Assembly (NCBI GenBank): GCA_965261085.1 | Contig: OZ253442.1 | Span: 2,560,001 to 2,624,000 of the forward strand | Direction of reading: 5' to 3' | DNA from: a bacterium | Lineage (GTDB): Bacteria; UBA8248 | DNA length: 64,000 nucleotides | Shown here: in pieces, positions 1,156-38,416 of the stretch | How the letters are laid out: each line of letters begins with the position of its first letter | Numbering within the stretch: position 1 is the first letter of the stretch | Translations under genes and position numbers: made by a program | The notes under the pieces: generated by a model | The model's database searches: none | The model's input: only the letters and a program-made list of their open reading frames with translations | Told to the model about the DNA's origin: nothing

Positions 1156-2139
1156 ATGGCTTCTCGACGCTTTCCCCCCTGGCTCGTAAAGCGGCTGCCG
1201 AGTCCGAGCCGTTCTCACGAAGTCAAGGCGCTGATGCGCAACAAGCATCTGCACACCGTGTGCGAGGAAGCCCGATGCCCGAACCTGTTCGAGTGTTTTT
1301 CCCGCAATACGGCCACCTTCATGATTGGCGGGGATGTATGCACCAGAACTTGCGGCTATTGCGCTGTCACGAAGGGCGCGCCGGAGCCTCTGGACGTAAG
1401 GGAGCCGCTGCATGTGGCCGAAGCCGCGAAATTACTGGGTCTGAAGCATGTGGTCGTCACGATGGTGAATCGCGATGATTTGCCCGATGGCGCGGCCGGC
1501 CACGTGGTGGCGACCATCGAAGCGATTCGCGAATTGCTGCCGCAGACCACGGTGGAGGTTCTGGTGAGTGATTTCATGGGCGATTTCGATGCGGTCGAGC
1601 GGGTGGTTCGCGCCGGACCGGATGTTTTTAACCATAACATCGAGACGGTGCGGCGCCTGTTCAAGAGTACACGGCCCAACGGCGATTATGAGCGCTCGCT
1701 GCGCGTCATCGGCATGGCGAGGGATATCGAGCCGGAGATGGTGACGAAAAGCGGCGTCATGGTCGGCATGGGCGAAACGGAAGAGGACGTCCTCTCCTTG
1801 ATGGATGATTTAAGAGACGAGAGGGTCGATTGCCGGGTCATGACGATCGGCCAGTATCTTTCGCCCCAAAAAAAGGCGATTCCCGTTCGCGAATACATTC
1901 ACCCGGACGTATATGCGCGCTACCGGCGCGCGGGCGAGGCGAGGGGTTTCGGGCACGTGTTCGCGGGTCCTTTCGTGAGAAGCTCCTACAATGCGGAGGA
2001 GGCCCTGCACGCCTCCCAAGGGTTGGGGGAGGGGAAATTGCAAGGAGACCCCGAGGGCCGCGCCTTTATGACGACGGATGGCTCGGGCCGTAATGTACCG
2101 GCTCCCTCCCATCGCCTGATATCCTTACCGGTTAGTTGA
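1156..2139 (+). CDS. lipA: Lipoyl synthase
   Basis: CEEARCPNLFEC and CTRTCGYC cluster motifs, plus the RSSY motif. Confidence 0.96.
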   Translation: MASRRFPPWLVKRLPSPSRSHEVKALMRNKHLHTVCEEARCPNLFECFSRNTATFMIGGDVCTRTCGYCAVTKGAPEPLDVREPLHVAEAAKLLGLKHVVVTMVNRDDLPDGAAGHVVATIEAIRELLPQTTVEVLVSDFMGDFDAVERVVRAGPDVFNHNIETVRRLFKSTRPNGDYERSLRVIGMARDIEPEMVTKSGVMVGMGETEEDVLSLMDDLRDERVDCRVMTIGQYLSPQKKAIPVREYIHPDVYARYRRAGEARGFGHVFAGPFVRSSYNAEEALHASQGLGEGKLQGDPEGRAFMTTDGSGRNVPAPSHRLISLPVS

Positions 2140-2151
2140 GGATTCTTGATC

Positions 2152-3348
2152 ATGCATGAGTTCCAGCGCATTACGCGCCTGCCGCCTTATGTCTTCGCGG
2201 GCGTCGATGAACTGAAAATCGAGGCCCGCCGCCGAGGCGTCGACATCATCGATTTCGGTATGGGGAATCCCGACCTCGCCACCCCGCCGCACATCGTGGA
2301 AAAGCTCGTGGAGGCGGCGACGAACCCCAGAAATCACCGCTACAGCGCTTCGCGCGGCATCACCCGGCTGCGGATGGCCATCGCAGATTGGTACGGCCGC
2401 CGCTATGACGTGAATATCGACCCCGAAGAGGAGGCCATCGTCACCATCGGCGTGAAGGAGGGCATCTCCCATCTGGCGTTGGCCATCACGAACCCGGGCG
2501 ATTTGGTCATGGTGCCGAGTCCCACATACCCCATCCATACCTACGCCATGGTGCTGGCGAACGGCAATGTGATTCACGTGCCGCTCTCGCAGGGGGATGA
2601 TTTTTTCGAGAGCATGACCGACATCATCCGTCCGATATGGCCGCGGCCGAAAATTCTCGTCTTGAGTTTTCCGCACAACCCCACCACGGTTTGCGTGGAT
2701 CTTGATTTTTTTGAAAAAGTCGTCGCCTTCGCGAAAGAGTACAACCTCATCATCGTGCATGATTTCGCCTATGCCGACTTAGGCTTCGATGGCTACGAGC
2801 CGCCCAGCATATTGCAGGTGAAGGGCGCCAAGGATGTGAGCGTGGAGTTTTTCTCGCTCTCCAAGAGCTACTCGATGCCCGGCTGGCGGATGGGCTTCGC
2901 CGTGGGGAACCGCGAGATTATCAGCGCGCTCAGGCGCATCAAGAGCTACCTGGACTACGGCGCGTTCCAACCCATCCAGATTGCGTCGATCATCGCGCTG
3001 AACGGCCCTCAGGAATGTGTCGAGGAAATCCGGCAGATCTACCAGAGTCGTCGCGACGCGCTGTGCAACGGGTTGGATAGAATCGGCTGGCACGTTCCAA
3101 AACCCAAAGGCACGATGTTCGTCTGGGCGGAGATTCCCGAACCCTATAAAGAAATGGGTTCTCTGGAGTTCTCCAAGTTCTTGTTGAAGGAAACGGAAGT
3201 GGCCGTATCGCCGGGGGTCGGCTTCGGCGAGTTGGGGGATGGGCACGTACGCTTCGCGCTCGTGGAGAATGAGCACCGCACACGGCAGGCGCTCAAAAAC
3301 CTCCGCTCCATATTTCAGGAAAAGGCGTCCAGGCGAGCGGCGAGCTAG
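2152..3348 (+). CDS. alaC: PLP-dependent class I aminotransferase (AlaC / LL-DAP aminotransferase-like)
   Basis: [20 protein letters not shown] and [12 protein letters not shown] (PLP lysine); usual position upstream of hom. Confidence 0.8.
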
Positions 3349-3374
3349 TCCGCCGCTTGATCGAGACGAGGGAC

Positions 3375-4703
3375 ATGAAGAAAATTTGCGTCGGCATATT
3401 GGGCTTGGGTACGGTCGGAAGCGGTGTGGTGAATCTGCTCGACGAGCAGCGTGAGTTGATCAAAAGGCGTCTTGGCGTGGAGGTATGCGTCTCGAGAATC
3501 GCGGACCGCAGCATCTTCACCAAGAACAAGACGGCGCGCGGAGTGGCTGCCGAGAATCTGGGTACGGATTTCGAGGCGGTAATCGATGCGCCCGACGTGC
3601 ACGTGGTCGCGGAACTCATCGGTGGAACGGATGACGCCAGGCGTCACATCCTGCGGGCGATCGGAAAGAAAAAGCCGGTCGTGACCGCGAACAAGGCGGT
3701 GCTCGCCGTCCACGGGGAGGAGATATTCGCCGCGGCGGAGAAGGCGGGCTGTCCGCTGGGTTTCGAGGCGTCCGTCGCGGGCGGCATTCCGATAATCAGA
3801 AACTTACGCGAGGCTTTCGCGGCGGATAAAATCGAGAGTCTCGCCGGCATCCTGAACGGCACGTGCAACTATATTTTGAGCTGTATGACGGAGATGGGCG
3901 CGGATTTCGGTGAAACGCTAAAGCGTGCGCAGGAACTCGGCTATGCGGAAGCCGATCCGGCTTTTGACATCGACGGTGTCGATGCGTCGCACAAGATAGC
4001 GATTCTGGCGAATCTGGCCTATGGAACACCTGTGGACGTCGAGGCGTACCACACCGAGGGGATTCGCTACATCACGTCCGTTGACATCGACATCGCCAAA
4101 GAACTCGGTTACCGAATCAAGCTCATTGCCATGGCGCAAGAGCAGGACGGGAAACTCGACATCCGCGTTCACCCGACGATGCTTCCCGAGAGCCACCCTC
4201 TCTCGCAGGTGGGAGGGGTCTATAATGCGGTGGCCGTCTCGGGGGCGAATGCAGGGCCCCAGGTTTTCATCGGCAAAGGCGCGGGCTCGGAGGCCACGGC
4301 TTCCGCCGTGGTGGGCGACATCATCGAAGTGGCGAGGTGGCTCAAGAATGGCGGTGACTCGCGTATTCCCGCCGCCGCTTTTTTACCTGACCAGCGCGAG
4401 CGCCTCGACATCCTGGCGCCTCGGGAAATTTCGACGCGCTTCTACGTTCGCTTCGCGGCTGTGGATAAGCCGGGGGTGTTGAGCCGGATCTCCGGCGTTT
4501 TCGGCGAACACGACATCAGCCTCGAAACCGTCGTCCAGAAGGGCCGCGCCGACGAGGACGGTTATGCCCGTCTGGTGCTGCTCACCCACAAGGCGACGGA
4601 GGAGAACATGCAAAACGCGCTCGAGGAGATTTCCCGCCTCGACGTGGTGCAATCTGCTTACGCGCTTATTCGTGTGGAATCGGACGGCATGGCTTTCATG
4701 TGA
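3375..4703 (+). CDS. hom: Homoserine dehydrogenase with C-terminal ACT domain
   Basis: GLGTVGSG, VVTANKA, EASVAGGIP, GYAEADP and the DKPGVL ACT domain. Confidence 0.96.
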   Translation: MKKICVGILGLGTVGSGVVNLLDEQRELIKRRLGVEVCVSRIADRSIFTKNKTARGVAAENLGTDFEAVIDAPDVHVVAELIGGTDDARRHILRAIGKKKPVVTANKAVLAVHGEEIFAAAEKAGCPLGFEASVAGGIPIIRNLREAFAADKIESLAGILNGTCNYILSCMTEMGADFGETLKRAQELGYAEADPAFDIDGVDASHKIAILANLAYGTPVDVEAYHTEGIRYITSVDIDIAKELGYRIKLIAMAQEQDGKLDIRVHPTMLPESHPLSQVGGVYNAVAVSGANAGPQVFIGKGAGSEATASAVVGDIIEVARWLKNGGDSRIPAAAFLPDQRERLDILAPREISTRFYVRFAAVDKPGVLSRISGVFGEHDISLETVVQKGRADEDGYARLVLLTHKATEENMQNALEEISRLDVVQSAYALIRVESDGMAFM

Positions 4704-23410: not shown

Positions 23411-25897
23411 GTGATCCATCGATCCGGCGTCGGAAAAACTGCCGGGAAACCCAAAAACATCTTTTTGCGACTAACTGCGTCGGCGGGGCGCTTGCTCGCG
23501 GATTGCGCCTTGTCGTTTGCCGGCATGAGGGCTTATCCGTGGATTCTGGGCGGAACGCTAGCTGTTGTGCTCTCGTTTTTGCTCACCACCGATCTTTCGG
23601 CGCCTCGCGTGTCTTTTGAGGTGGGTGATGTCGTCCCCAGGGACATTAAGGCCCCTCAAGATATGCGCGTGGTCGCTCCCATCGCCACGAATGCGAAGCG
23701 CCAGGCGGCCAGAGAAAAAGTCTTGCCACGTTACGATATCGATACCCAGCTTTCGCGAGTTGTCCTCGCTAAATTGAATGGCGCTTTTGAATCCATTCAG
23801 CGAACGATAGACAAAGAGCTCGAAAAAGTGAAAGCCGAGCAGTTGAGCCTACGTGCCAAGCAGAAGAGCCGGACGCTTTTATCCGAGTCGGAAGCCTATC
23901 GGGAAATGTACGCCAGTCCCGCCTTCATCAAGGCGGAGAGCGCGTTTCATGAGCTGGTGGGTGGCGCCGTTCCAAAGAAATTGTCGAATTGGTTGAGAAA
24001 TGAGAGATTCTCGAGCTGGATACGGGAAGATATCGCCAAGTTGTTGAAGGCGGCGTTCTCACGCCAAATCGTCAGTGATAAGCGGCTATACGCCACCCAT
24101 GCGGCGAAGGGAATTACGGCGCGCGACATCAGAACGGGGAATCGCGTCTCCCTCAGTCCATCCATGAATCCCCTGGAACTCAGACAGGTCGATAAATTAC
24201 TCAAGCAAGCAACCCGGAAGATGTCCCTCGGAATTCCTCGGCGTATGCGCGACTTGTTGGTCTCCCAAGTTTTGAAGATGGTTCAACCGACGTTGACGTT
24301 CAACAACAGAGCAACCCTTGAGAGCAGAGAAAAGGCTGCGGCCTCTGTTCCGCCTGTTTCAGAGATTCTCAAACAAGGGGAGATGATTGTTCGCGAAGGA
24401 GAACGAGTAAGCGAAGGACAAATCATAGAACTCAAAAGCCTGGAAAAAATCTACCGACAAAGCCATGTGCTAGGCAACTTTACCGGAACGGCTTTGGTGA
24501 TTTTCATCTTGCTACTTCTGGCATGGATTTGTGTGCAGAAGTATGACGTGAGTTTTTTGGCATCTCAAAAAAACGTAACACTTTTTGTGATCCTGCTTTT
24601 GACCCAAGTTGTTTTGCTGAAAATGGGAATTCTCTTCTCCGAGGTGTTGCATGAAACTTTTCGGGGTATTCCCCTACACTCGTTTTACTACGTCATTCCA
24701 TTTTGCTCTGCCTCTCTTCTCGCTGCAATCTTGCTGGGACGCTCATCCGCAGTGTTGATGGCGGTTTTCTCCGCCGTTCTGACCGGGCTGATCTTGCCGA
24801 ATTACATCAACTTCAGTCTCATCGCCTTGTCCGGCGGCGTGCTGGCAGCCATTCGCTGGAAGGAATATCGGCGCAGAACTTCTGTACTCATCGTGGCGTT
24901 CATCCTGGGTTTGTTAGGTGCCGCGCTCGCTCTGGGCTTCAACATGCAGGAGGGTTTCGGCGCCGTAATTGCGCAGTGGACGGATGTTCCCATCGCTTTG
25001 CTCGGCGGCCTTTCTAACGTCATTATCGTGGCGGGGGCCATGCCCTTGCTTGAGTCGATTTTCAAGCTCACGACGGATATGCGTCTTCTGGAGTTGGCCG
25101 ACCAGAATCACCCGCTGCTGAGAAAGATGGTCGTCAGTGCGCCGGGTACCTATCACCACAGCCTTCTCGTGGGCAATTTGGCCGAAGAGGCCTCCGAGGC
25201 GATCGGTGCGAATCCGCTTCTAACCCGTGTGGGTGCGTATTTCCACGATATCGGCAAGATGATGAAGCCGGAGTATTTCATCGAAAACCAGGGGCGCGAA
25301 AACCGTCACGATAGACTCAAGCCCAACATGAGCGCGCTTATCCTGATCAGCCATGTCAAAGAGGGCGTCGAACTCGCCAGAAGCCATCAACTGCCCAGAG
25401 AAATTATCGATTTAATTCGACAACATCATGGCACATCCTTGATTCAGTTTTTCTACGAGAAAGCGAAGAAGCAAAATGGGGATGACGTGACAGAAGAATT
25501 TTTTCGCTATCCGGGGCCGAGACCTCAGACGAGAGAGGCAGGCATCCTGATGCTGGCCGACATGGTGGAGGCATCGTCACACTCGCTTTCGGACCATTCT
25601 CTCGGGCGTCTGAGCGCTTTGGTGGATAGAACCGTCCAGAGTGCTTTTGTGGAGGGTCAATTGGATAATTGCAGTCTCACGCTCAGGGATTTGAGCAACA
25701 TTCAGGAAGCTTTCATGCGCGTTCTGGTTGGCATTCATCACCACCGGATTCATTATCCAGGACAAGAAGACGCTCCCAAGAAAGGCGCTGCGAATGGAAG
25801 TTCTCATCAAAAACGAGCAAGAGCTGTTCGATCTGGATCACAAGGCGCTGAGGCGGCGCTTGGAGGTCATACGGAGAGCACTCCGGTTCGAAGATGA
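23411..25897 (+). CDS. 7TM-HD (HDIG) membrane phosphodiesterase, PgpH-like
   Basis: Extracytoplasmic domain, 7TM block and APGTYHHS...HDIGK...ISHV...HHG...MLAD; phoH-HD-ybeY gene order. Confidence 0.88.
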   Translation: MIHRSGVGKTAGKPKNIFLRLTASAGRLLADCALSFAGMRAYPWILGGTLAVVLSFLLTTDLSAPRVSFEVGDVVPRDIKAPQDMRVVAPIATNAKRQAAREKVLPRYDIDTQLSRVVLAKLNGAFESIQRTIDKELEKVKAEQLSLRAKQKSRTLLSESEAYREMYASPAFIKAESAFHELVGGAVPKKLSNWLRNERFSSWIREDIAKLLKAAFSRQIVSDKRLYATHAAKGITARDIRTGNRVSLSPSMNPLELRQVDKLLKQATRKMSLGIPRRMRDLLVSQVLKMVQPTLTFNNRATLESREKAAASVPPVSEILKQGEMIVREGERVSEGQIIELKSLEKIYRQSHVLGNFTGTALVIFILLLLAWICVQKYDVSFLASQKNVTLFVILLLTQVVLLKMGILFSEVLHETFRGIPLHSFYYVIPFCSASLLAAILLGRSSAVLMAVFSAVLTGLILPNYINFSLIALSGGVLAAIRWKEYRRRTSVLIVAFILGLLGAALALGFNMQEGFGAVIAQWTDVPIALLGGLSNVIIVAGAMPLLESIFKLTTDMRLLELADQNHPLLRKMVVSAPGTYHHSLLVGNLAEEASEAIGANPLLTRVGAYFHDIGKMMKPEYFIENQGRENRHDRLKPNMSALILISHVKEGVELARSHQLPREIIDLIRQHHGTSLIQFFYEKAKKQNGDDVTEEFFRYPGPRPQTREAGILMLADMVEASSHSLSDHSLGRLSALVDRTVQSAFVEGQLDNCSLTLRDLSNIQEAFMRVLVGIHHHRIHYPGQEDAPKKGAANGSSHQKRARAVRSGSQGAEAALGGHTESTPVRR

Positions 25898-26870: not shown

Positions 26871-29561
26871 ATGTCTCCCCCCAAAGGTATTCTGCAAGCT
26901 AAGAAAGAAACAAATGCATCAGGTAATAAGAGCCGGGCTCCATCTCCTGCGATGCGCCAATACTTGGAAATAAAAAGGCGCTACCCGGACGCGATGCTGT
27001 TTTTTCAGTTGGGTGATTTTTTCGAGATGTTTTATGAAGACGCGAAGCTCGGGGCGAAAGTACTGGAACTCACGCTGACGTCGCGACAGAGTGATGACAA
27101 GGGGCCCATTCCAATGTGTGGCGTGCCGTGTCATTCGGCATCCTCTTATTGTGGGCGATTACTGGAAGCAGGTTTTAAAGTCGCCATATGCGAACAGGTG
27201 GAAGATGCGGGAGAAAGTAGGGGAGTTGTGAAGCGCGAGGTGACTCGCGTCCTCACTCCGGGTACCTCGATTGCCGACCTTGAGTTACTGGATGGCAAGG
27301 AATCTCAATACTTGGCGGGGATTACGGTATCGGCAAAAGAAGGAGAGGCGCTTTGGGGAATAGCATGGCTCGATAGTTCGACTGGTGAGTTTTGTGCGAC
27401 CCAGGCGGAAGGCGATGGTGCCGAGACGCTCATTTGCAATCAATTGGAGAGGCTTTCTCCTCGCGAACTCATCTTGCCGGATGTATTTTCTCCGCCCGAT
27501 GAGTTGAAAAGAAAAATTGATGAACTAGGCATTTATATTGAAAAAAGGCCAGCCGCCACTTTTTATGAGCCGCTTGATTTCAAAAGCTTGGACGCCATAT
27601 TTCCGGATGAAGCGAATGTTCTGGCGAATCCGGCGGCGGTGGATTCCGCCGTCGGCGTTTTGACGTATCTCAAAGAAAACCAGCCTGGTGATTTTCCCCA
27701 TCTCAAACCTGTTTTTTTCTCCCGACTTTCGGACACAATGATTCTCGATGCAGCCACGTTGCGAAATTTAGAACTCACACGTTCATCCGTGGATCGTGGG
27801 AAAAAGGGCACTTTATTTGGTTTGTTGGATGAGACGCTGACTGGGATGGGAGGACGTCTGCTGAATAAATGGGTCCTTTCCCCTTTGATTCAAAAAAAGG
27901 CCATCGATTATCGCTCCGAATCCGTACAGGAACTCGTTGATAACCTCGAAATCCTGAATATGCTCAAAAATGCCCTTGAACCCGTTCAAGATATCGAGCG
28001 GCTCCTGGGGCGTGTGGGTTCTCAAACTGCAAACGCTCGAGACTTGGCGGGGCTCGGCGCATCTTTGGCCATGTTGCCAGAGGTTTGTGAGGCGATAACG
28101 GGGATGGAATCAGAGTTGTTTCGCTCCGTCTTGTCGGGGTGGGATTTTATCGAGGACGTAACGTTGGAACTGGAGAGCGCGATTGTGGATGACCCGCCCG
28201 TTTCGATTCGAGAGGGTGGAATGTTTCGCGCAGATTATGACCAAGAACTCTCTCAATTGAGAAGGGCGCAGCAGGAGGGCGATAAGTGGCTGAAAAATTA
28301 TGAAAGCAAGGAAAAAGAACGAACGGGACTGCCTCTAAAAATCGGGTTTAATCGTGTTTTTGGGTATTATCTCGAAATAACCAAACGCTTCAGTGAACAG
28401 GCGCCGACGGAATATACGCGCAAGCAAACCCTCGTTTCTGCAGAGCGGTACATCACATCCGAGTTAAAGAAGATGGAAGAGGACATTCTTGGCGCGGAGG
28501 AGAAAGACCATCATCTCGAGTTCATGCTTTTTGGACGCTTAAGAGCGCAAATATCAAAACAGGCCAAGCGCATACTCGCTGCCGCGGAGAGGATAGCGAT
28601 TCTTGATGCCGTTCTATCCTTGGCGCTAGTTGCGCGCAAATATGGATACGTCAGGCCCCAAATTATGGATTCCAGGGATCTTGAAATTATCGAGGGCAGG
28701 CATCCTGTCATGGAGGCGGAAAATCCTGGTCTCTCTTTCGTGCCGAACGATTTGTCGATTCGCGATGATCGTCGAATACTCATTATTACAGGGCCGAATA
28801 TGGCCGGAAAATCCACTTACCTGCGTCAATCGGCGCTCATCATTCTGATGGCGCAAATTGGCAGCTTCGTACCCGCCAAGAGCGCGAAAATCGGTTTGGT
28901 CGATAGGGTGTTCACTCGCGTTGGCGCGCATGACCGACTTTTGGAGGGGCAGAGCACCTTCATGGTCGAGATGGTGGAGACGGCCACTATACTAAGAGAG
29001 TCGACGCAAAAAAGTTTCATCGTTCTGGACGAAGTCGGGCGAGGCACGAGTACTTTTGATGGAGTGAGCATCGCCTGGTCGATTGTAGAGTATCTTCATA
29101 ATGAAGTTCGCCACAGTGCGAGGACTTTGTTCGCGACCCATTATCATGAATTGGCTGAACTCTCTCAAGAACTCACTTGTGTGAAAAATTTGACGGTAGA
29201 TGTTCGAGAATGGGGCGATGAAATCGTTTTTTTACGAAAAGTAGTCGATGGCAGTTGCGATAGAAGCTACGGAATTCAAGTAGGCAGGTTGGCGGGACTT
29301 CCAGAAGAGGTCATTGATCGGGCGAAAACTTTGCTCTCCAAGTTTGAGAGTGCAGAGGCCATGTCCCGTTATGGCGGGGAAAAATCTTTTTTGGAAAATC
29401 GCCGGGAAAAAGGGCAATTGCCTTTGTTTTTACGCGCGGAATCACAAGTCGAGGAGGTGTTGAAAGACCTTGACCCGGATTCCATGACACCTCGCCAAGC
29501 TCTAGAAGCCCTATATGAACTCCGAAAAACCATGGAGAGCGGTGGGCAATCGCAAAAATGA
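26871..29561 (+). CDS. mutS: DNA mismatch repair protein MutS
   Basis: GDFFEMF, TGPNMAGKST, STFMVEM, DEVGRGTS and FATHYHEL. Confidence 0.97.
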   Translation: MSPPKGILQAKKETNASGNKSRAPSPAMRQYLEIKRRYPDAMLFFQLGDFFEMFYEDAKLGAKVLELTLTSRQSDDKGPIPMCGVPCHSASSYCGRLLEAGFKVAICEQVEDAGESRGVVKREVTRVLTPGTSIADLELLDGKESQYLAGITVSAKEGEALWGIAWLDSSTGEFCATQAEGDGAETLICNQLERLSPRELILPDVFSPPDELKRKIDELGIYIEKRPAATFYEPLDFKSLDAIFPDEANVLANPAAVDSAVGVLTYLKENQPGDFPHLKPVFFSRLSDTMILDAATLRNLELTRSSVDRGKKGTLFGLLDETLTGMGGRLLNKWVLSPLIQKKAIDYRSESVQELVDNLEILNMLKNALEPVQDIERLLGRVGSQTANARDLAGLGASLAMLPEVCEAITGMESELFRSVLSGWDFIEDVTLELESAIVDDPPVSIREGGMFRADYDQELSQLRRAQQEGDKWLKNYESKEKERTGLPLKIGFNRVFGYYLEITKRFSEQAPTEYTRKQTLVSAERYITSELKKMEEDILGAEEKDHHLEFMLFGRLRAQISKQAKRILAAAERIAILDAVLSLALVARKYGYVRPQIMDSRDLEIIEGRHPVMEAENPGLSFVPNDLSIRDDRRILIITGPNMAGKSTYLRQSALIILMAQIGSFVPAKSAKIGLVDRVFTRVGAHDRLLEGQSTFMVEMVETATILRESTQKSFIVLDEVGRGTSTFDGVSIAWSIVEYLHNEVRHSARTLFATHYHELAELSQELTCVKNLTVDVREWGDEIVFLRKVVDGSCDRSYGIQVGRLAGLPEEVIDRAKTLLSKFESAEAMSRYGGEKSFLENRREKGQLPLFLRAESQVEEVLKDLDPDSMTPRQALEALYELRKTMESGGQSQK

Positions 29562-29688
29562 AGATAGGGTCCGCGACACACCACCCAGTTCGGTTTGCTG
29601 AAGCCTTGAAGGCAGAGAAGCCAAACAAGGGATTGAGAGCTTTTTTCTTATGCGATAGCATTGTGAACTTAGAGCCCAAGGGGAACAT

Positions 29689-30294
29689 ATGTTGTCTAAC
29701 ACCCAGAAAACATTTGTTCTGAGAAAATTTGCGATAGTCATCTGTTTGCACTTCGTTCTAGTGGGGCCGGCACTTTCCGCAACGGACAACCAGGGTGGAA
29801 TCCGAATAGAAGATATTATCGTCATTGAGAAGAATGGGCAGTTGCTCGTTTTTGGTTCTCTCTTGAGTGCATTTTCACCAAAACTGTTGGAAGCCATTCA
29901 CAGCGGTGTGACCACGAAGTTTATCTTTGATGTAAGTCTCCTCCGCTCTCGCAAGCTGATTTATGATTTGGAAGTCACCTCGCGGCAATTACATCATCAA
30001 GTGAAATATAGCGCTTTGAAAAAAACATACACTTTTCATCTTAAAGAAGGTGCGAAAGACATCGAGAGAAAAGTGACAAGAAGCCAAGGTGAAATGACGG
30101 ACTGGATGCGAGAGTTGAATGGTGTGCCCATCGTCTCTGGCGAGGCACTGTCTCCAAATAGTCAATTTTATGTCAAAATCAGTGCGCGGTTGAGTCATGT
30201 GGATTTTGTTTTTCCCTTTAACTATTTACTCGCTTTTTGGGGGAAGAAGTCTGATTGGAGCTATTCCCCAAAATTTAGTTCTAAAGGAATGTGA
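29689..30294 (+). CDS. DUF4390-like exported protein (NtrY-associated)
   Basis: Signal peptide, LLEAIHSGVTTKFIF and position immediately upstream of the NtrY-like kinase. Confidence 0.7.
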   Translation: MLSNTQKTFVLRKFAIVICLHFVLVGPALSATDNQGGIRIEDIIVIEKNGQLLVFGSLLSAFSPKLLEAIHSGVTTKFIFDVSLLRSRKLIYDLEVTSRQLHHQVKYSALKKTYTFHLKEGAKDIERKVTRSQGEMTDWMRELNGVPIVSGEALSPNSQFYVKISARLSHVDFVFPFNYLLAFWGKKSDWSYSPKFSSKGM

Positions 30295-30297
30295 GTT

Positions 30298-32562
30298 GTG
30301 CACTCAAAGCGACTGAAAAATCAAGAAACTTCTTCACGCCGGCGAAGGACACTTCTGCGGTCCTTCATCGCTTTGATCATTATTGCGACTCTTTCGTTCA
30401 CGGCTTGGATTTATTTCAAAGAGCTCGAGCCAGGAGTCCCTCTACTGAACAACGTCGTCGTATTTGCGCTCGTGAACCTGAGTATCATTCTGCTCATGGT
30501 GGTGATTCTCTTGGTGGCGAAGAACTTGGTGCGTCTTTACTACGAGGGGAGAACGGGTGCCGGTCGCTCACGTTTGCAATTAAAGCTTGTATTGGCTTTT
30601 GTCGGATTTACGCTCATACCTGTAGTGGCTCTTTTTGTGGTGGCCAGCGGCTTGATAAACCAAAGTTTTAACGCCTTGTTCAACATGAATGTGGAGAGAG
30701 CGCTTAAAGGATCGTTCGAGGTAGCTCAAACCTATTATCGCGAGGTGGAGCGAAACGCACTGGTCAGCGCGAGTCGACTTGCGCTTATATTGGAGAAGAC
30801 ATCCCCCGACATAGTGGAAAACCCCAAGGCGGTTGAAAACATATTGGAGTCCGAGAGGAAGAGCTTGGGGGTGGATTTCATCCAGCTCTACGATAGAGAA
30901 CGAAAGGAGATCGTATCGGTCAAGCGCCCGGGGTTGGAACGAGCCATTATGTTCTCGCCACTGGTGGGATACGTGGATCAGGTGATTGATGGGGAGTCGC
31001 GCTCAAGTGTAGAGAATTGGGAAAAAGGAGATGTCATCTATGGCGTGGCTCCTTTGAAGATTCAAAAAAAAGTGGTGGGGTTTGTCGTTGTATCCAAATA
31101 TGTCTCTGATAGGCTCGTTGAGAAGATAAGAGGCATATCGGATTCTTTTGTGAATTATAAAGAGTTGGAATTGTCCAAGAATCCAATTAAAGCTAACTAC
31201 ATCGTCACTTTTTTGGTGGTCACTCTGCTCATTCTGTTCGCTGCCATATGGTTTGGTTTCTACCTCGCTCGCGGTATCACGGTTCCCATCGAAAAATTAG
31301 CGGAAGCCACAAGGGCGGTGTCGGATGGCGATCTCGAACATCGCGTAGATGCGCAAGCGGATGGCGAGGTGGGGATTTTGGTCAGCGCATTCAACAGCAT
31401 GACGGAAGAATTGTCGGCTAACAAGGAGAAAATCGAAGAGTCCTCTGAAATTCTGCGCCGCTCCAACATGGAAATCGACAGAAGGCGCAGATATATGGAA
31501 GCGATGCTCGAAAATATCGGAGCTGGTGTGATATCAATCAATCGCCGAGGGCGCGTTACTATTCTCAACACAGCGGCTGGAGAGTTGCTGAGTATTGAGC
31601 CTCAGAATGCCGTGGGACGAATGTTCAGCGAGGTTTTTGAAAGCGCGCATCTCGAACCCGTTCGTCAGTTGATGCGCTCAATGAGGGATCGAAAACACCA
31701 AAGCGCTTCGGAGCAAGTGGAGCTCATGATTGATGGCCGCGTACTGACGCTACGCGCGAGCTTGACCCTGCTCAAAAGCGCGGATGGTGGTAGGCTCGGT
31801 GCAGTCATTGTGTTTGATGATATGACGGCTTTGATACGGGCTCAAAAAGTGGCTGCATGGCAAGAAGTGGCTCGCGGCATCGCGCATGAGATCAAAAATC
31901 CGCTGACGCCGATTCAACTCTCTGCTCAAAGAATGAGAAGAAAATTTGAAAGCGGAGCCTATGATTTTGCGGAAGTATTTGAATCTTGTACGGATACCAT
32001 TATCAATCAGGTGACGAGTCTGCTTGAAATGGTGAATGAATTCAGCCGGTTTGCGCGAATGCCGGAGCCGAGATTAAGGGTTTGCGGGTTTGTTCCCCTC
32101 ATTGAGGATGTTGCAAATTTATATCGTGGCAGAAAAGGGGATGTAAAATTTTCCATTCATATCAATGCCGGGGATGCAGCCGTCATGGCGGATCCAGAGC
32201 AGTTGCAACGCGTATTCATCAATTTGCTGGAAAACGCTTTCGAATCCCACGAGATCGAAGGCGAGATAGATTTACAAGCATGGGGTGATAAGAGCAGAAA
32301 TATGATAGTTCTTGAGGTTGCTGACCAGGGGCAGGGTATATCGGAAGATATGAAAGGCCATATATTCTCGCCTTACTTTTCTACAAAAGATAGAGGCTCC
32401 GGGTTAGGTTTGGCTATATGTCACCGCATTGTGGCAGATCATAATGGAACAATAAGCGTGCGAGATAACCATCCAGCGGGTTCTGTTTTTCGTGTAACGT
32501 TGCCGCTGGCGCCTGCTGCGGACATCACACCTGAAAAGCAAAGGACGGCTTCCATTGGATAA
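30298..32562 (+). CDS. ntrY: NtrY-like membrane sensor histidine kinase (periplasmic, HAMP, PAS, HisKA, HATPase domains)
   Basis: AWQEVARGIAHEIKNPLTPIQLSA (H-box), NLLENA, DQGQG and GSGLGL; three N-terminal TM segments plus HAMP and PAS. Confidence 0.9.
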   Translation: MHSKRLKNQETSSRRRRTLLRSFIALIIIATLSFTAWIYFKELEPGVPLLNNVVVFALVNLSIILLMVVILLVAKNLVRLYYEGRTGAGRSRLQLKLVLAFVGFTLIPVVALFVVASGLINQSFNALFNMNVERALKGSFEVAQTYYREVERNALVSASRLALILEKTSPDIVENPKAVENILESERKSLGVDFIQLYDRERKEIVSVKRPGLERAIMFSPLVGYVDQVIDGESRSSVENWEKGDVIYGVAPLKIQKKVVGFVVVSKYVSDRLVEKIRGISDSFVNYKELELSKNPIKANYIVTFLVVTLLILFAAIWFGFYLARGITVPIEKLAEATRAVSDGDLEHRVDAQADGEVGILVSAFNSMTEELSANKEKIEESSEILRRSNMEIDRRRRYMEAMLENIGAGVISINRRGRVTILNTAAGELLSIEPQNAVGRMFSEVFESAHLEPVRQLMRSMRDRKHQSASEQVELMIDGRVLTLRASLTLLKSADGGRLGAVIVFDDMTALIRAQKVAAWQEVARGIAHEIKNPLTPIQLSAQRMRRKFESGAYDFAEVFESCTDTIINQVTSLLEMVNEFSRFARMPEPRLRVCGFVPLIEDVANLYRGRKGDVKFSIHINAGDAAVMADPEQLQRVFINLLENAFESHEIEGEIDLQAWGDKSRNMIVLEVADQGQGISEDMKGHIFSPYFSTKDRGSGLGLAICHRIVADHNGTISVRDNHPAGSVFRVTLPLAPAADITPEKQRTASIG

Positions 32563-34687
32563 GGGACATATCCTCATCGTCGATGATGAGCGCGAAATAC
32601 TCGCGAGCCTGGAAGATGTTTTGCACGATGAAGGGTATCGTGTAGAGAGGGCAGAGTCAGGAGAAACTGCCCTTCAGTTGGTTCGAACCGAAACTCCGGA
32701 TGTGGTTTTAGTTGATGTGTGGATGCCGGGTATTGATGGAATCAAGACTTTGCAAGCGGTGAAAGAGTCGAACGCGGATATAGAAGTCGTCGTGATGTCG
32801 GGTCACGGAAACATTGAAACCGCCGTGGCCGCAACAAAGTTAGGGGCTTTCAATTTTATTGAAAAACCTCTGTCTATCGATGCAGTTTTACGAATAGTCG
32901 ATTCCGCTGTTCAAGCGCGAAGAGCCAAGGAACTCAAGGCGAATGATGTCGTCGATGTGATGCTTGACGGCGCTAGCAAGAGTATTCAAAGGGTTGGAAA
33001 AGCCATCAGGAGAGCGGCGAAAGATATTGACCCCTTACTGATTGCAGGTGAAAGAGGAACCGGCAAGCGTTTTATAGCCAGGGTGATTCATAAGAACGGT
33101 ACCAGCAAAGAAGAAGGTTTTAGGCCTGTTCATTGCCGCTCCCTGTTTCCGATGGCGGAGGTAAACGAATGGGAAGAGGCACTGGAGCGGTTGGTGCCCG
33201 ATACTTTTCAAGGGACGGTATATCTGGATGGTCTGGAGCAGCTACCCATGGCGGAGCGTGAGAGATTTCTCGCTCGATTCCTTGGGCATACGAAGGACTC
33301 AATGCGTTTAATGGTATCCGTTGATCACATGGGAACCCCGAAAGACAAGGCCTACGTGCGAGCCTTGTCCACCAAAATAGGCGCCGATGTAATACATTTG
33401 CCCTCTTTACGTGAACGCAAAGAGGACATTTTACCGTTGGCCAACAGATTTTTGAATGAATGTGCCGAAGTTGGTAGGTATGAAAAGGAATTCTCAGAAG
33501 ATGTCATTGCGCTTCTGGAAGACTATGACTGGCCGGGCAATATCGCAGAATTAAAAGGGGCGGTGACCAAAGCGGCATATTCATCACAAGGATCGGAGAT
33601 TCGCATCGGCCACTTGCCGTATGCGATACGCGAAGCTTCTGATTTCGAAGTGGACACATCAGAAAACGACGCCCCTTCTAATTTTAGTGCGGCCAGAACC
33701 GAGTGGGAGAGACAGTATCTTTCCTTCCATTTGGAGGAGCACGGTTGGGATATCAACAAAACCGCCCAGGCGGTGGGCATGACGGAATCTGGGTTAAAGC
33801 GTAAAATTAAAGCATACAACATAGAGCCCGTATTACCGGCGTCGACGACGCTTCGAGAAACAAATCAAAGGAGTATTTCGAAAAGTGTCGTCTTGTATGG
33901 CCGGGGGCTTCATTCAGGGCTGAAAACCGGCTTGATCATTGAACCCTTGCCGCCGGGGAGCGGAATTCAGTTCGGTAGCCTGACGAGCCCCGATACTGTG
34001 AGGGCGAATGTCGATTTTGTGGATGGCACCAACCATGCGACGAACTTGCGCAATGGAGCTGTGACGGCTCGAACGATAGAGCATCTCATGAGCGCGCTGC
34101 ACGCATACAAGATAAGCAATATACTCATTAAAATGAGTGAGGAAGTGCCTGTCATGGATGGGTCGGCAGTGGAGTTTTGCCGCTTGCTTGAAGAAGCGGG
34201 CATCGAGGATCAAAAGGAAAAACGCGCAGACTTGTGGGTTGATAAGGTTTACGAGGTAGGAGAACCGGGCGACGATAAAGGTTATATTCGTATAGAGTCG
34301 GCGGATTCTTTTTCGGTTTCATATCTCATCGATTATCCTGAGCCGATTGGAAAACAATCCTACCTGTATGAACATAAGAACGCGTTGAGTTTTCAAGAAG
34401 AAATCGCGCCTGCCCGTACGTTTGGTTTTGTTTCTGAACTGGAGTCGCTCGAGAAAATGGGCTTGGCCGAGGGAGGTCGTTGGGATAACGTGATTCTTGT
34501 GGACAAAGCGCGTGTCGTAAATACCCAATTGCGATTTCCTAACGAGTTTGTTCGCCATAAAATTCTTGACGTTATAGGAGATCTGTATTTAACCGGTCGC
34601 CCTATTCGAGGAAAAGTGACCGCCGAGAGAAGTGGCCACCGGCATAATGTCGCCTTGGTCAAAAAGTTGATGGAAGTCCATGGCTGA
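32555..34687 (+). CDS. lpxC: NtrX-like response regulator (REC, degenerate AAA+, HTH) fused to UDP-3-O-acyl-GlcNAc deacetylase LpxC
   Basis: REC residues D10/D11/D54/S82/K104; GERGTGK; WPGN; Fis-type HTH; from aa 438 QRSI...GRGLHSG...TIEHLMSAL...PVMDGSA...APARTFGF...RHKILDVIGDL...SGH. Confidence 0.93.
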   Translation: MDKGHILIVDDEREILASLEDVLHDEGYRVERAESGETALQLVRTETPDVVLVDVWMPGIDGIKTLQAVKESNADIEVVVMSGHGNIETAVAATKLGAFNFIEKPLSIDAVLRIVDSAVQARRAKELKANDVVDVMLDGASKSIQRVGKAIRRAAKDIDPLLIAGERGTGKRFIARVIHKNGTSKEEGFRPVHCRSLFPMAEVNEWEEALERLVPDTFQGTVYLDGLEQLPMAERERFLARFLGHTKDSMRLMVSVDHMGTPKDKAYVRALSTKIGADVIHLPSLRERKEDILPLANRFLNECAEVGRYEKEFSEDVIALLEDYDWPGNIAELKGAVTKAAYSSQGSEIRIGHLPYAIREASDFEVDTSENDAPSNFSAARTEWERQYLSFHLEEHGWDINKTAQAVGMTESGLKRKIKAYNIEPVLPASTTLRETNQRSISKSVVLYGRGLHSGLKTGLIIEPLPPGSGIQFGSLTSPDTVRANVDFVDGTNHATNLRNGAVTARTIEHLMSALHAYKISNILIKMSEEVPVMDGSAVEFCRLLEEAGIEDQKEKRADLWVDKVYEVGEPGDDKGYIRIESADSFSVSYLIDYPEPIGKQSYLYEHKNALSFQEEIAPARTFGFVSELESLEKMGLAEGGRWDNVILVDKARVVNTQLRFPNEFVRHKILDVIGDLYLTGRPIRGKVTAERSGHRHNVALVKKLMEVHG

Positions 34688-34738
34688 TTTTGAATTCATT
34701 TCGCACGATTCCGCCCGCCAAATCATGGAACAGCACTT

Positions 34739-35791
34739 TTGAGCGAACATCGTCTGACATACCGCGACGTGGGCGTCGATGTGGATTTGGGAGAGGGTTT
34801 CGTTCAGGCTATCGCCCAGGCTATGAAGTCCACCCATGATAGCCAAAAAGGTCGTATCCTGGAGGGAGCGTCGGATTTTGCGGGTTTGTTCCGCTTGGGT
34901 GGGGGATATGAAGATCCTGTACTCGTTTCAGGCACCGACGGCGTCGGCACGAAATTGCTCCTGGCCCAGGAATTCGAACGCCACGATTCCGTTGGGATTG
35001 ACTTGGTGGCCATGTGTGTCAACGATATCTTGACCACGGGAGCAGAACCCCTTTTTTTCCTTGACTACATTGCGACGGGCCAGATCGATCAAAACGTATT
35101 GAAAGTAGTTCTATCTGGGATTGCCCAAGGCTGCCGGGAGGCGGGGTGCGCCCTCGTCGGAGGCGAGACGGCCGAGATGCCTGATATGTATGAGCCGGGT
35201 GTGTATGACCTCGCCGGATTCGCTGTGGGGGTGGTTGAACGTAAAAATTTGGACAATAAAATGCCTGTGAAAGCTGGTGACGCCATACTGGCGCTTCCTT
35301 CCTCAGGAATTCATAGCAACGGGTATTCCTTGGTGCGAAAAGTATTTGGGTCAAAAGAAAAACGAGATGTGGCGGCGCAAAGGCTGGGCGTTTCCATTGA
35401 AGATGTTTTATTGGAGCCAACGCGGATTTACGCCAAAGGGGCTAAGTCCGTTTGGGGAGAAGAGGGGATAAGCGGCATCGCGCACATCACGGGAGGCGGT
35501 ATTCCGGGAAATGTGAGCCGTGTGATTCCAGATGATTTGCAGGCTAACTTTCATCCTGAAAAGTGGGCGATGCCAGAGATATTTCCACTGATTCAGGAGT
35601 TCGGCCCGGTTGAGAGCGTGGAGATGTATCGCACTTTTAACATGGGTTTAGGCTTTGTCTTCCTCGTGAGGGCGGAGCAAGCGGAATCTTTGCTCGAGTC
35701 TTTGAAAAATGCGGGAGAACAAGCCATGATTGTCGGCGAGGTCGTCAAAAAAACGAGAGGTGGCCATTCTGTCGCTATTGAGGGCATATAA
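34739..35791 (+). CDS. purM: Phosphoribosylaminoimidazole (AIR) synthetase
   Basis: GTDGVGTK, DLVAMCVND, GGETAEMP, HSNGYSL and AHITGGG. Confidence 0.97.
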   Translation: MSEHRLTYRDVGVDVDLGEGFVQAIAQAMKSTHDSQKGRILEGASDFAGLFRLGGGYEDPVLVSGTDGVGTKLLLAQEFERHDSVGIDLVAMCVNDILTTGAEPLFFLDYIATGQIDQNVLKVVLSGIAQGCREAGCALVGGETAEMPDMYEPGVYDLAGFAVGVVERKNLDNKMPVKAGDAILALPSSGIHSNGYSLVRKVFGSKEKRDVAAQRLGVSIEDVLLEPTRIYAKGAKSVWGEEGISGIAHITGGGIPGNVSRVIPDDLQANFHPEKWAMPEIFPLIQEFGPVESVEMYRTFNMGLGFVFLVRAEQAESLLESLKNAGEQAMIVGEVVKKTRGGHSVAIEGI

Positions 35792-36472: not shown

Positions 36473-37201
36473 TTGCGTAAATCGAGTTTCTTGATATTAG
36501 TATTTGTTTTTTTGCTTTTCGCGTTTTCGCAAGAGCGTGCTCTCAGCGCATCTATGGCGGAAGAATCGCGTCTGAAGGCGGAGAAAATAATCACGACGCT
36601 TCAGGAAAAATTTGAGGCTCTCGAATCTCTGCAAGCCTCTTTCGAGCAGAAAAATGAAATAAAATCCCTTGGGCGAACAACGACGTCGAGCGGGAGTCTC
36701 TCGTGGAAGAAGCCCGGCAAATTGCGCATGGAGTATGTCAAGCCTGAAAAGCAGGTTCTGGTCTCTGATGGTCATACGTTTTGGCTCTACACCGCTCGCT
36801 TCAGACAGGTGATGGTTTCCAAAACCGGGGGTTCTGGGTTTGGAGCCACCCCTTTGTTATTTTTGTCGGGCGAGGGGAATTTGAAAAAGAATTTTCATGT
36901 AATCGTGGAAGAGATTGGAATTGCCAGACGAAGTGAAGGAATCTGGAGAGCCGGTCAGCCCCATCGCATTCGGCTGGAGCCGAAGTCTCCGGGCGCATCA
37001 TTTAGCCGAATGTGGGTTGAGGTGGAACCTGAGAATTTCGTAATCCTCACTTTGGCGTATATTGATAATATCGGCAACAAAAGTCACTTGCGGTTTTCAA
37101 ACGTCAAAGAAAACGTCAAAATCGCAGAAGAGGAATTTCAGTTTGTTGTGCCGCCAAATGTCGAAGTACTACAAATGCCGGCTCAGAGCGGCCAGCGATA
37201 A
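36473..37201 (+). CDS. lolA: Outer-membrane lipoprotein carrier LolA
   Basis: Signal peptide, ASFEQ, KKPGKLRMEY and VSDGHTFWLY. Confidence 0.88.
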   Translation: MRKSSFLILVFVFLLFAFSQERALSASMAEESRLKAEKIITTLQEKFEALESLQASFEQKNEIKSLGRTTTSSGSLSWKKPGKLRMEYVKPEKQVLVSDGHTFWLYTARFRQVMVSKTGGSGFGATPLLFLSGEGNLKKNFHVIVEEIGIARRSEGIWRAGQPHRIRLEPKSPGASFSRMWVEVEPENFVILTLAYIDNIGNKSHLRFSNVKENVKIAEEEFQFVVPPNVEVLQMPAQSGQR

Positions 37202-37219
37202 ATAAGGACTTATTCGAGA

Positions 37220-38416
37220 ATGGCGATGCAAATCATAAACTGGGTGATGGGTTTGGGGCAGACGATTTTCTGGGCTGTACTGGTTCTGGGGTTACTCATT
37301 TTTATCCATGAGTTGGGCCACCATCTCGTCGCAAAATGGCTCAAAATCGGCGTTTCCACATTTTCTTTAGGCTTCGGTCGCCGCATTTGGGGCTTTCAAC
37401 GAGGAGAGACTGAATATCGTATTTCGCTCATCCCCTTGGGTGGTTATGTAAAGCTTGTGGGAGAAGATCCAGAAGCGCAACCTGATAATCCCGATGCGCC
37501 CAAAGAGCCGGATGAGCCGGAGAAATCCTTCTACTTGCGGCCTGTGAGCCACCGATTGGCTGTCATTTCGGCGGGCCCCTTGTTTAATGTCGTCCTGGCG
37601 ATTCTCCTCAGTTGGGGATTGCACTTTGGCGGCATTCCTGTGCCGGGAACGTGGGTTGGCGGTGTTTTGCCTGATACGCCTGCGCAAAAAGCGAACCTTC
37701 AAACTGGCGATCATATCGTGGCTATTGATGGAAAACGAATTCAAAAATGGTCCGAGCTCGTCGAAATTGTACGAAAAAATGCCGATAAAAAACTCGTGTT
37801 GACGGTGGAGCGTAGCCGCAATTCCTTTGAAACGCTCATTGTTCCGACATCGAGGAGCGCGACGGGCAAAGAATTGGGTTATGGCCGGATCGGCATTAGT
37901 ATCGGCCAAGGCGCCTACTCCGAGCGTTTTGGCTTCCTTGAGTCTTTGGGGAAGGGAATCGAGCAAAACTACCGCATCGCCAGCTTAACGGTCTTTACGC
38001 TGTATTCGATGCTCACGAAGACCATTCCTGCGGATATCGGAGGGCCGATTCGTATTTCTATGGTGGCCGCGGAGCAGGCGCAGCGCGGATTCCGCTACCT
38101 CGTCATGTTCACGATTTTGCTCAGCGTCAATCTGGCGATTTTGAACTTGCTGCCAATCCCGGTTCTCGATGGTGGGCACATTTTTTTCTTGCTTGTTGAA
38201 GGCTTGCGTGGCAAACCTATTAGCCTGAGAATCCGGGAACTGGCCATGCAGGTGGGCACCGTTCTACTAATCGGGTTGATGATCTTTGCCACTTACAAGG
38301 ACAGTGTGTATTATCTTTTTAGTAGTGAATCGTCATCGATAACGAAAAATGAGAAGCAAGAAGGGAAAGTGAAGAGCGCAACGAAGCCATCTCCAGAAAG
38401 CAGAAAAGGCGAATAG
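37220..38416 (+). CDS. rseP: RIP metalloprotease RseP
   Basis: HELGH, PLGGYVK, AGPLFN, PDZ domain and NLLPIPVLDGG. Confidence 0.95.
   Translation: MAMQIINWVMGLGQTIFWAVLVLGLLIFIHELGHHLVAKWLKIGVSTFSLGFGRRIWGFQRGETEYRISLIPLGGYVKLVGEDPEAQPDNPDAPKEPDEPEKSFYLRPVSHRLAVISAGPLFNVVLAILLSWGLHFGGIPVPGTWVGGVLPDTPAQKANLQTGDHIVAIDGKRIQKWSELVEIVRKNADKKLVLTVERSRNSFETLIVPTSRSATGKELGYGRIGISIGQGAYSERFGFLESLGKGIEQNYRIASLTVFTLYSMLTKTIPADIGGPIRISMVAAEQAQRGFRYLVMFTILLSVNLAILNLLPIPVLDGGHIFFLLVEGLRGKPISLRIRELAMQVGTVLLIGLMIFATYKDSVYYLFSSESSSITKNEKQEGKVKSATKPSPESRKGE

Follow-up and report, generated by a model that had tools for sequence, protein, structure and literature searches.

What follows for a bacterium when LpxC and a response regulator are encoded in one frame? 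The question is raised by a gene in the 64,000 nt stretch analysed here (positions 2,560,001 to 2,624,000 of contig OZ253442.1, assembly GCA_965261085.1; the window), in which an NtrX-like response regulator is joined to LpxC. LpxC is an essential, flux-controlling enzyme that takes the committing step of lipid A synthesis, and it is a long-standing antibiotic target. The initial annotation, made from the sequence alone, had reported one uninterrupted 710-aa open reading frame (ORF) and proposed a candidate phosphorylation-controlled lipid A enzyme. The frame was confirmed; the fusion is almost certainly real, functional and the housekeeping LpxC of its genome, and it is moderately likely that receiver phosphorylation controls LpxC after translation. 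The gene and its parts are:

32555..34687, plus strand: fusion gene coding for an NtrX-like response regulator plus LpxC, one 710-aa ORF with a TTG start

32570..32896, plus strand: receiver (REC), aa 6-114 (Pfam PF00072 Response_reg, 104 bits)

32969..33649, plus strand: degenerate AAA+ region with its lid, aa 139-365 (Pfam Sigma54_activ_2 and AAA_lid_14)

33701..33817, plus strand: Fis-type helix-turn-helix (HTH) domain HTH_8, aa 383-421 (Pfam PF02954, 26.6 bits, cut-off 22)

33827..33865, plus strand: linker PVLPASTTLRETN, aa 425-437 (13 aa), without a start-type codon

33866..34672, plus strand: complete LpxC deacetylase domain, aa 438-706 (Pfam PF03331, profile positions 1-267 of 268)

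The C-terminal part is a complete LpxC from Q438 onwards, as had been read from its TIEHL, HKILD and SGH motifs. It scores 274.3 bits with PF03331 (cut-off 27) and 232.9 bits with the NCBIfam lpxC model TIGR00325 (cut-off 187.25), and the C-terminal 277 aa align to the solved LpxC chains of P. aeruginosa, A. aeolicus and E. coli with E values of about 1e-46. In this alignment the TxEH, RTFGF, HKxLD..GD and SGH motifs are in register, with E509/H510, H668, D672 and H695 falling on TxEH, HKxLD and SGH. In LpxC the zinc ligands are His, His and Asp, and a Glu and a His are catalytic. The protein stops four residues past the LpxC domain, without a long C-terminal tail. With the model for bifunctional LpxC/FabZ (NF009667) it scores 207 bits, against a cut-off of 465.

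The N-terminal part, in which the phospho-acceptor D54 is codon 32714-32716, has the architecture of NtrX: a receiver, an AAA+ region without GAFTGA, HTH_8, and an adjoining NtrY-type kinase. The best solved relative, Brucella NtrX (5m7n; E 9e-47), aligns with residues 5-421 over their whole length. The Fis-type HTH of the initial annotation stands, and its NtrC-like AAA+ region stands in part. An AAA+ region is present, with a weak Sigma54_activ_2 match (aa 139-285, 39.6 bits), AAA_lid_14 at aa 286-365 and an intact Walker A (GERGTGK). The GAFTGA loop is absent and Walker B reads DG, so that two marks of the sigma54-dependent enhancer-binding (NtrC) type, the loop and the Walker B Asp-Glu, are missing. 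Judged by its motifs, this region does not constitute a functional sigma54 activator module of the NtrC type.

The initial annotation had also stated that there is neither an ATG nor a Shine-Dalgarno sequence at the junction. There is indeed no start codon in the linker; an SD-like AGGAG does exist at 33869-33873, formed by the codons of R439 and S440, and is followed by no usable start. The first in-frame start-type codon after it is TTG 33893 (L447), 19 nt on. Separate translation of LpxC from this gene is therefore unlikely on the sequence, since the linker is without a start codon and this next TTG already lies within the first LpxC strand.

Is this the LpxC on which the cell depends? The window's genome (G000; a single contig of 4.27 Mb, 96% complete) has one PF03331 match, which is the fusion gene, so that the check for a second, stand-alone lpxC proposed in the initial annotation came back empty. 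The same genome contains lpxA (250.9 bits, cut-off 231.05), with an lpxD-like neighbour, and lpxB (243.2 bits, cut-off 190.25). The fused gene is also the sole LpxC match in seven other checked genomes, occurring either in the long form found in the window (G024, G026, G036) or in a short form (G009, G023), in which the receiver is connected to LpxC by 27-65 poorly conserved residues; the remaining two are records labelled Thermodesulfovibrionia (G061) and Desulfomonile (G062). A short REC-LpxC without HTH is the sole LpxC in G009, G023 and G061. The LapB zinc-ribbon model PF18073 has no match in the window's genome; this model matches 10 of 14 control genomes, Gram-positives included, and the result therefore carries little weight.

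At one locus with a Thermoanaerobaculia label (L028), REC-LpxC (2023-3360) has a second LpxC-like ORF (3717-4613) close after it. In the whole-genome search this second copy is a partial match with one internal TGA, and it is possibly a decaying duplicate.

Across the phylum Nitrospinota, an LpxC family search of 51 genomes gave a match in 50, and no clear additional stand-alone lpxC was found in any of the 51. Matches were complete in 45 genomes. Of these, 34 lie in open frames of at least 700 aa and one in a contig-cut frame of 646 aa (G025); nine are in frames of 432-538 aa (G009, G023, G049, G050, G052, G053, G054, G055 and G057) and one is in a 356-aa frame (G042, 67% complete). Five further genomes have LpxC fragments only, and G031 has no LpxC match. 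When 41 genomes were searched for the uninterrupted full-length frame, it was found at 71-99% identity in the genus, 56% in the family, 48% in the order, 43-46% in the class, and, beyond the phylum, at 40% in a single genome (G036). The frame thus stays whole even in relatives that are only 40% identical; the initial annotation had raised the prospect of separate ntrX and lpxC genes in all of them. The fused frame also occurs under other phylum labels, and the architecture is present in databases, where it is named LpxC or NtrX; in one ESM Atlas cluster of 381 members, Sigma54_activat and LpxC are on all.

Public sequence data tell the same for the window's own gene. A contig of 11.9 kb assembled independently from run X3 covers 32300-34900 in one piece with eight substitutions and no gaps, and a contig from run X5 crosses the junction (33425-34900), also without gaps. 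Sampled words of the fusion gene are present at 86-90% in 14 public runs of five coded studies.

A few records deserve mention for their own sake. In run X5 the AAA-lid stretch 33341-33454 is represented by two alternative 114-nt contigs, with 0 and 11 differences from the window, which indicates co-existing strains. At L022 (3173-5667) the long-form gene is in two ORFs, REC-AAA and AAA-HTH-LpxC, and in the 8-Mb bin G016 (G016:C19:33661-35593) the LpxC match runs across two frames; each is a frameshift or an assembly error. One long fusion lies on a 3.2-kb contig (L018; coverage 0.34 in its name) assigned to a Promethearchaeota archaeon bin; a short one lies on a 4.4-kb contig (L031) placed under Enterobacteriaceae. 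Both group on the tree described below with rows labelled Thermodesulfobacteriota, Binatia or Myxococcota, and they are therefore probably mis-binned.

Which parts of the fusion are maintained? An alignment of 102 fused proteins (77 long and 25 short forms) was examined. Every one of the 102 has the receiver residues D10, D11, D54 and K104; together with S82, where S, T or C is found (66, 35 and 1), these are the phospho-site residues listed in the initial annotation, and that reading holds throughout. Position 101 is F or Y (80 and 22). Likewise, the LpxC residues E509, H510, H668, K669, D672, D676 and H695 are invariant (102/102). The middle region has fared differently. Among the 77 long forms none has a GAFTGA-like motif and four have a Walker B DE (73 do not), and the Walker A lysine is kept in 76, therefore nucleotide binding may persist. 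Sigma54 contact and ATP hydrolysis have probably been lost, as far as motifs can tell. Selection appears to act on the receiver and LpxC, not on the region between them.

The phylogeny of the LpxC domain supports this. In a tree of 81 rows (42 fused and 39 stand-alone; quick method, unrooted, with Shimodaira-Hasegawa-like approximate likelihood ratio test (SH-aLRT) support), all 42 fused domains are on one side of a branch with 100% SH-aLRT support and the 39 stand-alone domains are on the other. Its marked branches require at least four changes between long and short forms, by gain or loss of AAA+/HTH; the short form of G009 nests within the window's own genus, and the short form of G023 is sister to the long form of G024. 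In the same genus as the window, the 458-aa short form P0054 has PF00072 and PF03331 only, and it keeps a remnant of the HTH region, which points to deletion of AAA+/HTH in this protein. The simplest reading of these sequences is that the fusion arose once and that AAA+/HTH was then deleted repeatedly, with the receiver always left on the enzyme.

From what arrangement could such a fusion have come? Loci were sampled as the best 80 of at least 600 pattern matches in named genomes, ranked by similarity, and were classed with hidden Markov models built from the fusion alignment. The sample contains eight complete long fusions, two broken ones (L016 and L022), 28 short REC-LpxC loci and 17 loci with an unfused regulator; the rest have a stand-alone lpxC. 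The 17 unfused loci entered the sample through their NtrC-type regulator only, LpxC being no selection criterion, and in all 17 the order is lpxC-(DUF4390)-ntrY-regulator on one strand. Ten of the 17 have a DUF4390 homologue immediately 5' of ntrY, as does L041 (phmmer). Labels of these loci include Geobacteraceae, Desulfuromonadales, Desulfobacterales, Acidobacteriota and Methylomirabilota. Walker B DE is present in all 14 of their regulators that were aligned, and reading the alignment by eye gives G[AS]FTGA in 12 of the 14, GAFDGA in one and a degenerate motif in one; by these motifs, they are canonical sigma54 activators. In the 300 nt upstream of lpxC, sigma54-type -24/-12 elements with at least 10 of 12 positions matching occur in 6 of 16 loci (0.16 expected), and those with at least 9 in 9 of 16 (0.78 expected), the expected counts being from the loci's own background rate. 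The window has no such element at 10 or more of 12 matches anywhere. Elsewhere in the window's genome (G000:C1:1569251-1572858) there is a second kinase paired with a canonical GAFTGA-bearing NtrC-type regulator, and this paralogue, not the fusion, is the best match of the unfused lpxC-linked regulators.

A circuit of this kind has been studied in Desulfovibrio. According to the accessible parts of the reports, lpxC is the single target of D. vulgaris DVU2934 by DNA-affinity-purified chip (DAP-chip), Geobacter and Acidobacterium have orthologues of this regulator, and the orthologous operon of S. fumaroxidans has lpxC directly upstream of it (PMC3333781); GAFTGA is present in DVU2934 (PMC4641369). 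In D. alaskensis G20, as far as the accessible text of PMC4045070 goes, a mutant in the kinase Dde_3000 strongly up-regulates lpxC, Dde_3000 signals to Dde_3003, lpxC is apparently the sole target of Dde_3003, and a sigma54 site lies upstream of the lpxC transcription start site.

In the window the fusion gene is preceded by two genes that belong to the same arrangement:

29689..30294, plus strand: DUF4390 (PlrP-like) protein, 201 aa (Pfam PF14334, 89.1 bits, cut-off 27)

30298..32562, plus strand: NtrY-type membrane histidine kinase, 754 aa (Pfam NtrY_N, HAMP, PAS, HisKA and HATPase_c)

The DUF4390 stop (30294) and the kinase start (30298) abut, and in the ORF list the TTG start of the fusion overlaps the kinase stop by 8 nt, giving the three-component gene order DUF4390-NtrY-NtrX. 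The DUF4390 protein has an N-terminal hydrophobic stretch ending in ALSA and is therefore probably exported; it is likely to be a periplasmic partner of the kinase. In reciprocal searches with 15 kinases taken from unfused, short-form and long-form loci, the window kinase was every time the best match in its genome, scoring 375-546 bits where the second-best match reached at most 127. That the fusion, the DUF4390 gene and the kinase form one envelope-signalling module is the best explanation of these data.

DUF4390 genes directly 5' of NtrY-type kinase genes were seen in the window and in L041, L050, L054, L055, L060, L061, L066, L068, L073, L074 and L087, in records labelled Nitrospinota, Nitrospirota, Thermodesulfobacteriota, Acidobacteriota and Methylomirabilota. 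At loci of the Desulfomonile type (L020 1-5274, L021 167-6363) multi-receiver proteins including a hybrid kinase precede the long fusion, not NtrY; the hybrid kinase scores about 53 bits to the window kinase, and a different phosphorelay input is suggested there.

Downstream of the fusion are purM, purN, lolA, an RseP-like M50 protease, ispG and proS. The LolA-family lipoprotein carrier and the RseP-like M50/PDZ protease (36473-38416, just past purM/purN) both have envelope functions, and LolA and PurN are also found behind the fusion in L023. Upstream of mutS (23411-25897) is an 828-aa seven-transmembrane receptor with an intracellular HD hydrolase (7TMR-HDED, 7TM-7TMR_HD and HD). Scans of 29400-35000 gave no excess of sigma70 promoters (6 sites, 6.0 expected by shuffling) or of terminators (6 sites, 5.9 expected by shuffling).

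How, then, is LpxC controlled? The candidate phosphorylation-controlled enzyme of the initial annotation gains support from the conserved sole-copy fusion, the invariant phospho-site and the adjoining NtrY-type kinase. It is held with moderate confidence that a dedicated lpxC regulator became fused to its own target enzyme, and that receiver phosphorylation is now a direct control of LpxC. The ancestor would have had a DUF4390-NtrY circuit with a sigma54 activator that controlled lpxC only. In the lineage of the window, lpxC would have been joined to the 3' end of the regulator gene, short-circuiting the ancestral circuit; after the fusion the AAA+ region would have lost its sigma54-contact loop and catalytic glutamate, and in several lineages AAA+ and HTH would have been deleted, leaving REC-LpxC. 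NtrY, tuned by the DUF4390 protein, would set the phosphorylation state of D54, and the receiver would govern LpxC output post-translationally. The favoured form is CheB-like: the receiver may dock on and be released from the enzyme, or receiver-driven dimerization may alter the state of the enzyme. Regulated proteolysis and recruitment to the membrane-bound kinase are conceivable variants. We infer both the evolutionary direction and every step from phosphorylation to LpxC output. The chances are judged to be even that two-component control of this essential biosynthetic enzyme is purely post-translational and has replaced an ancestral lpxC-dedicated sigma54 transcriptional circuit.

Structure prediction bears on the docking step. 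An AlphaFold2 model of a 445-aa short form has a mean predicted local distance difference test (pLDDT) score of 85.2, a predicted template modelling (pTM) score of 0.75 and one disordered 33-residue linker stretch (135-167). This pTM exceeds the value of about 0.6 estimated for independently placed REC and LpxC (our own rough arithmetic, not tool output), which is a hint that REC packs against LpxC in the modelled short form. In the model of the 710-aa protein (mean pLDDT 86.9) each domain is confidently folded, with low confidence at 365-374 and 427-430 (pLDDT below 50 at linker residues 427-430). A complex prediction of REC (1-125) with LpxC (434-710), with alignments, gave a score of 0.05 and a mark of 0.32, and nothing was drawn from it.

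A number of observations count against direct control of LpxC by the receiver, or against the history proposed for it. The pTM of the 710-aa model is 0.48, with no confident packing between domains. Not every REC-LpxC is the only copy: a Desulfopila genome (G058) has a stand-alone LpxC besides its REC-LpxC, and G059 and G060 have partial second LpxC matches. An NtrY-type kinase is directly upstream in just 3 of the 28 sampled short-form loci. The best NCBIfam family for the N-terminal part is NtrX (NF051870), at 248.8 bits, and its equivalog cut-off of 600 is not reached. In the reciprocal search, 14 of 14 unfused regulators match a paralogue in the window's genome (at 1571482) better than they match the fusion, so the case for orthology of this part is made by the neighbouring kinase and DUF4390 genes and not by the regulator itself. 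The window module likely matches the lpxC-dedicated sigma54 system of Desulfovibrio, a correspondence that follows from the orthologue and synteny statements in the accessible parts of those papers. The direction of change between long and short forms is unproven, the tree being quick and unrooted and the sample similarity-ranked. Finally, contigs from RNA libraries (X15 and X16) cover patches of both gene halves and may include DNA; one of these (X15 record 5, 33836-34027) has 30 letters left of nt 33866, one short of the bridging rule of 31. This patchy coverage fits expression of the fusion gene.

Three other explanations were weighed. The one that survives best, improbable as it is, is a neutral or merely convenient fusion: LpxC would be constitutive, the receiver would act only through the DNA-binding part, for example in autoregulation of the operon, and control of lpxC would stay transcriptional. 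The above-cut-off HTH_8 of the window protein would suit this, as would the lack of confident packing in the long-form model and the transcriptional control of lpxC in unfused relatives, so far as the accessible parts of PMC3333781 and PMC4045070 describe it. Such a fusion would be expected to break or to shed its receiver, yet at least four changes between long and short forms leave REC on LpxC, and the phospho-site is invariant in all 102 sequences, including 25 short forms that have no HTH through which to act. Moreover, neither a sigma54 promoter nor a GAFTGA motif is left here.

It is very unlikely that the LpxC domain is a ligand sensor, for UDP-3-O-acyl-GlcNAc or its product, that tunes the DNA-binding regulator, making the protein mainly a transcription factor that senses flux. 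Transcription factors with sensor domains derived from enzymes are a known kind, and the window protein has kept its HTH; the initial annotation had offered a metabolite sensor as its second option. This option is disfavoured, since three genomes (G009, G023 and G061) have an HTH-less short form as their sole LpxC, and it sits poorly with a fusion that is the only LpxC of a genome with lpxA and lpxB and in which all catalytic and zinc residues are invariant. As for an artefact, in which ntrX and lpxC are really separate and a sequencing or assembly error took away the stop between them or opened a frame there, the probability is negligible and no support for it was found, given indel-free contigs from other studies that exclude an error at the junction, the frame of at least 700 aa behind 34 of 45 complete LpxC matches in the phylum and also under other phylum labels, and a linker with no start codon for a separate LpxC.

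Post-translational control through the receiver remains the preferred explanation, and the statement of the initial annotation that no characterised protein has this architecture is upheld in that no published description or test of a REC- or regulator-LpxC fusion was found in literature searches, subscription journals and supplementary files being outside their reach. The fusion is novel within two established classes, response regulators of the receiver-enzyme type and systems that control LpxC. It suggests an undescribed way of controlling outer-membrane synthesis, and a phylum-wide fusion of the sole LpxC to a phospho-receiver beside its kinase offers a definite hypothesis open to in vitro testing. 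If the post-translational explanation is true, lipid A and lipopolysaccharide (LPS) homeostasis would be the core function of this branch of the NtrYX family. The module also links three literatures, on the lpxC-only sigma54 system of Desulfovibrio, on the envelope phenotypes of NtrYX mutants, and on PlrP/DUF4390 as a third component, and the series from separate genes through the long fusion to the minimal REC-LpxC reveals which part of the coupling selection keeps.

The fusion can be compared with several known systems. With stand-alone LpxC it shares the full-length domain with aligned catalytic motifs; it differs in the 437 response-regulator residues at its N-terminus, and the fused LpxC domains form a branch of their own. 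From E. coli LpxC it differs further in lacking the long C-terminal tail, which in E. coli is the FtsH degron. LpxC/FabZ (NF009667) is another natural LpxC fusion, with a pathway enzyme at the C-terminus there as opposed to a signalling domain at the N-terminus in the window protein.

The NtrY/NtrX systems of alphaproteobacteria (Brucella 5m7n, R. sphaeroides and C. crescentus) share the receiver, the GAFTGA-less AAA+ region, HTH_8 and the NtrY-type kinase, and they lower lpxC transcripts and LPS (PMC7240162; PMC12444477; accessible text of both). In R. sphaeroides without NtrYX, the former source gives an 8.8-fold rise in lpxC mRNA and a rise in LPS, and between them the two sources report repression of lpxC by NtrYX in two alphaproteobacteria. 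The window protein is different in falling below the equivalog cut-off, in its degenerate Walker B and in a link to LpxC that is covalent, not transcriptional. In its accessible text, a 2025 review, 'The regulation of lipid A biosynthesis', describes NtrYX control as transcriptional and not LpxC-specific and treats how other organisms regulate LpxC as a far less settled matter; neither 'fused' nor 'fusion' appears in the main text (PMC12444477).

With PlrP-PlrS-PlrR of Bordetella, an NtrYX-family system, the window shares the order DUF4390-ntrY-regulator, in genes that overlap or abut. The accessible part of a 2026 paper proposes that PlrP (DUF4390) is a periplasmic third component of PlrSR which restrains the phosphatase activity of the NtrY-family kinase PlrS; its survey, as accessible, is of proteobacteria, whereas the window-type triad is found in Nitrospinota and under other phylum labels and is tied to lpxC, and neither 'lipid A' nor 'LPS' occurs in the main text of that paper (PMC13001219).

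For the enzyme itself, the nearest analogy is the CheB type of response regulator, in which the receiver is joined to a catalytic domain by a flexible linker. The short REC-LpxC, with its linker of 27-65 residues, would have the same receiver-linker-enzyme layout; the catalytic domain is unrelated, and that REC occludes the active site of LpxC is a hypothesis.

The closest counterparts as a circuit are DVU2931/DVU2934 and Dde_3000/Dde_3003 of Desulfovibrio, each a kinase with an NtrC-family regulator for which, in the accessible text, lpxC is the sole reported target; the lpxC-kinase-regulator synteny given for S. fumaroxidans (PMC3333781, accessible part) is that of all 17 unfused loci. As there described, the Desulfovibrio regulator is a separate, GAFTGA-bearing protein that activates a sigma54 promoter, whereas the regulator in the window is fused to LpxC and has lost both GAFTGA and the Walker B glutamate.

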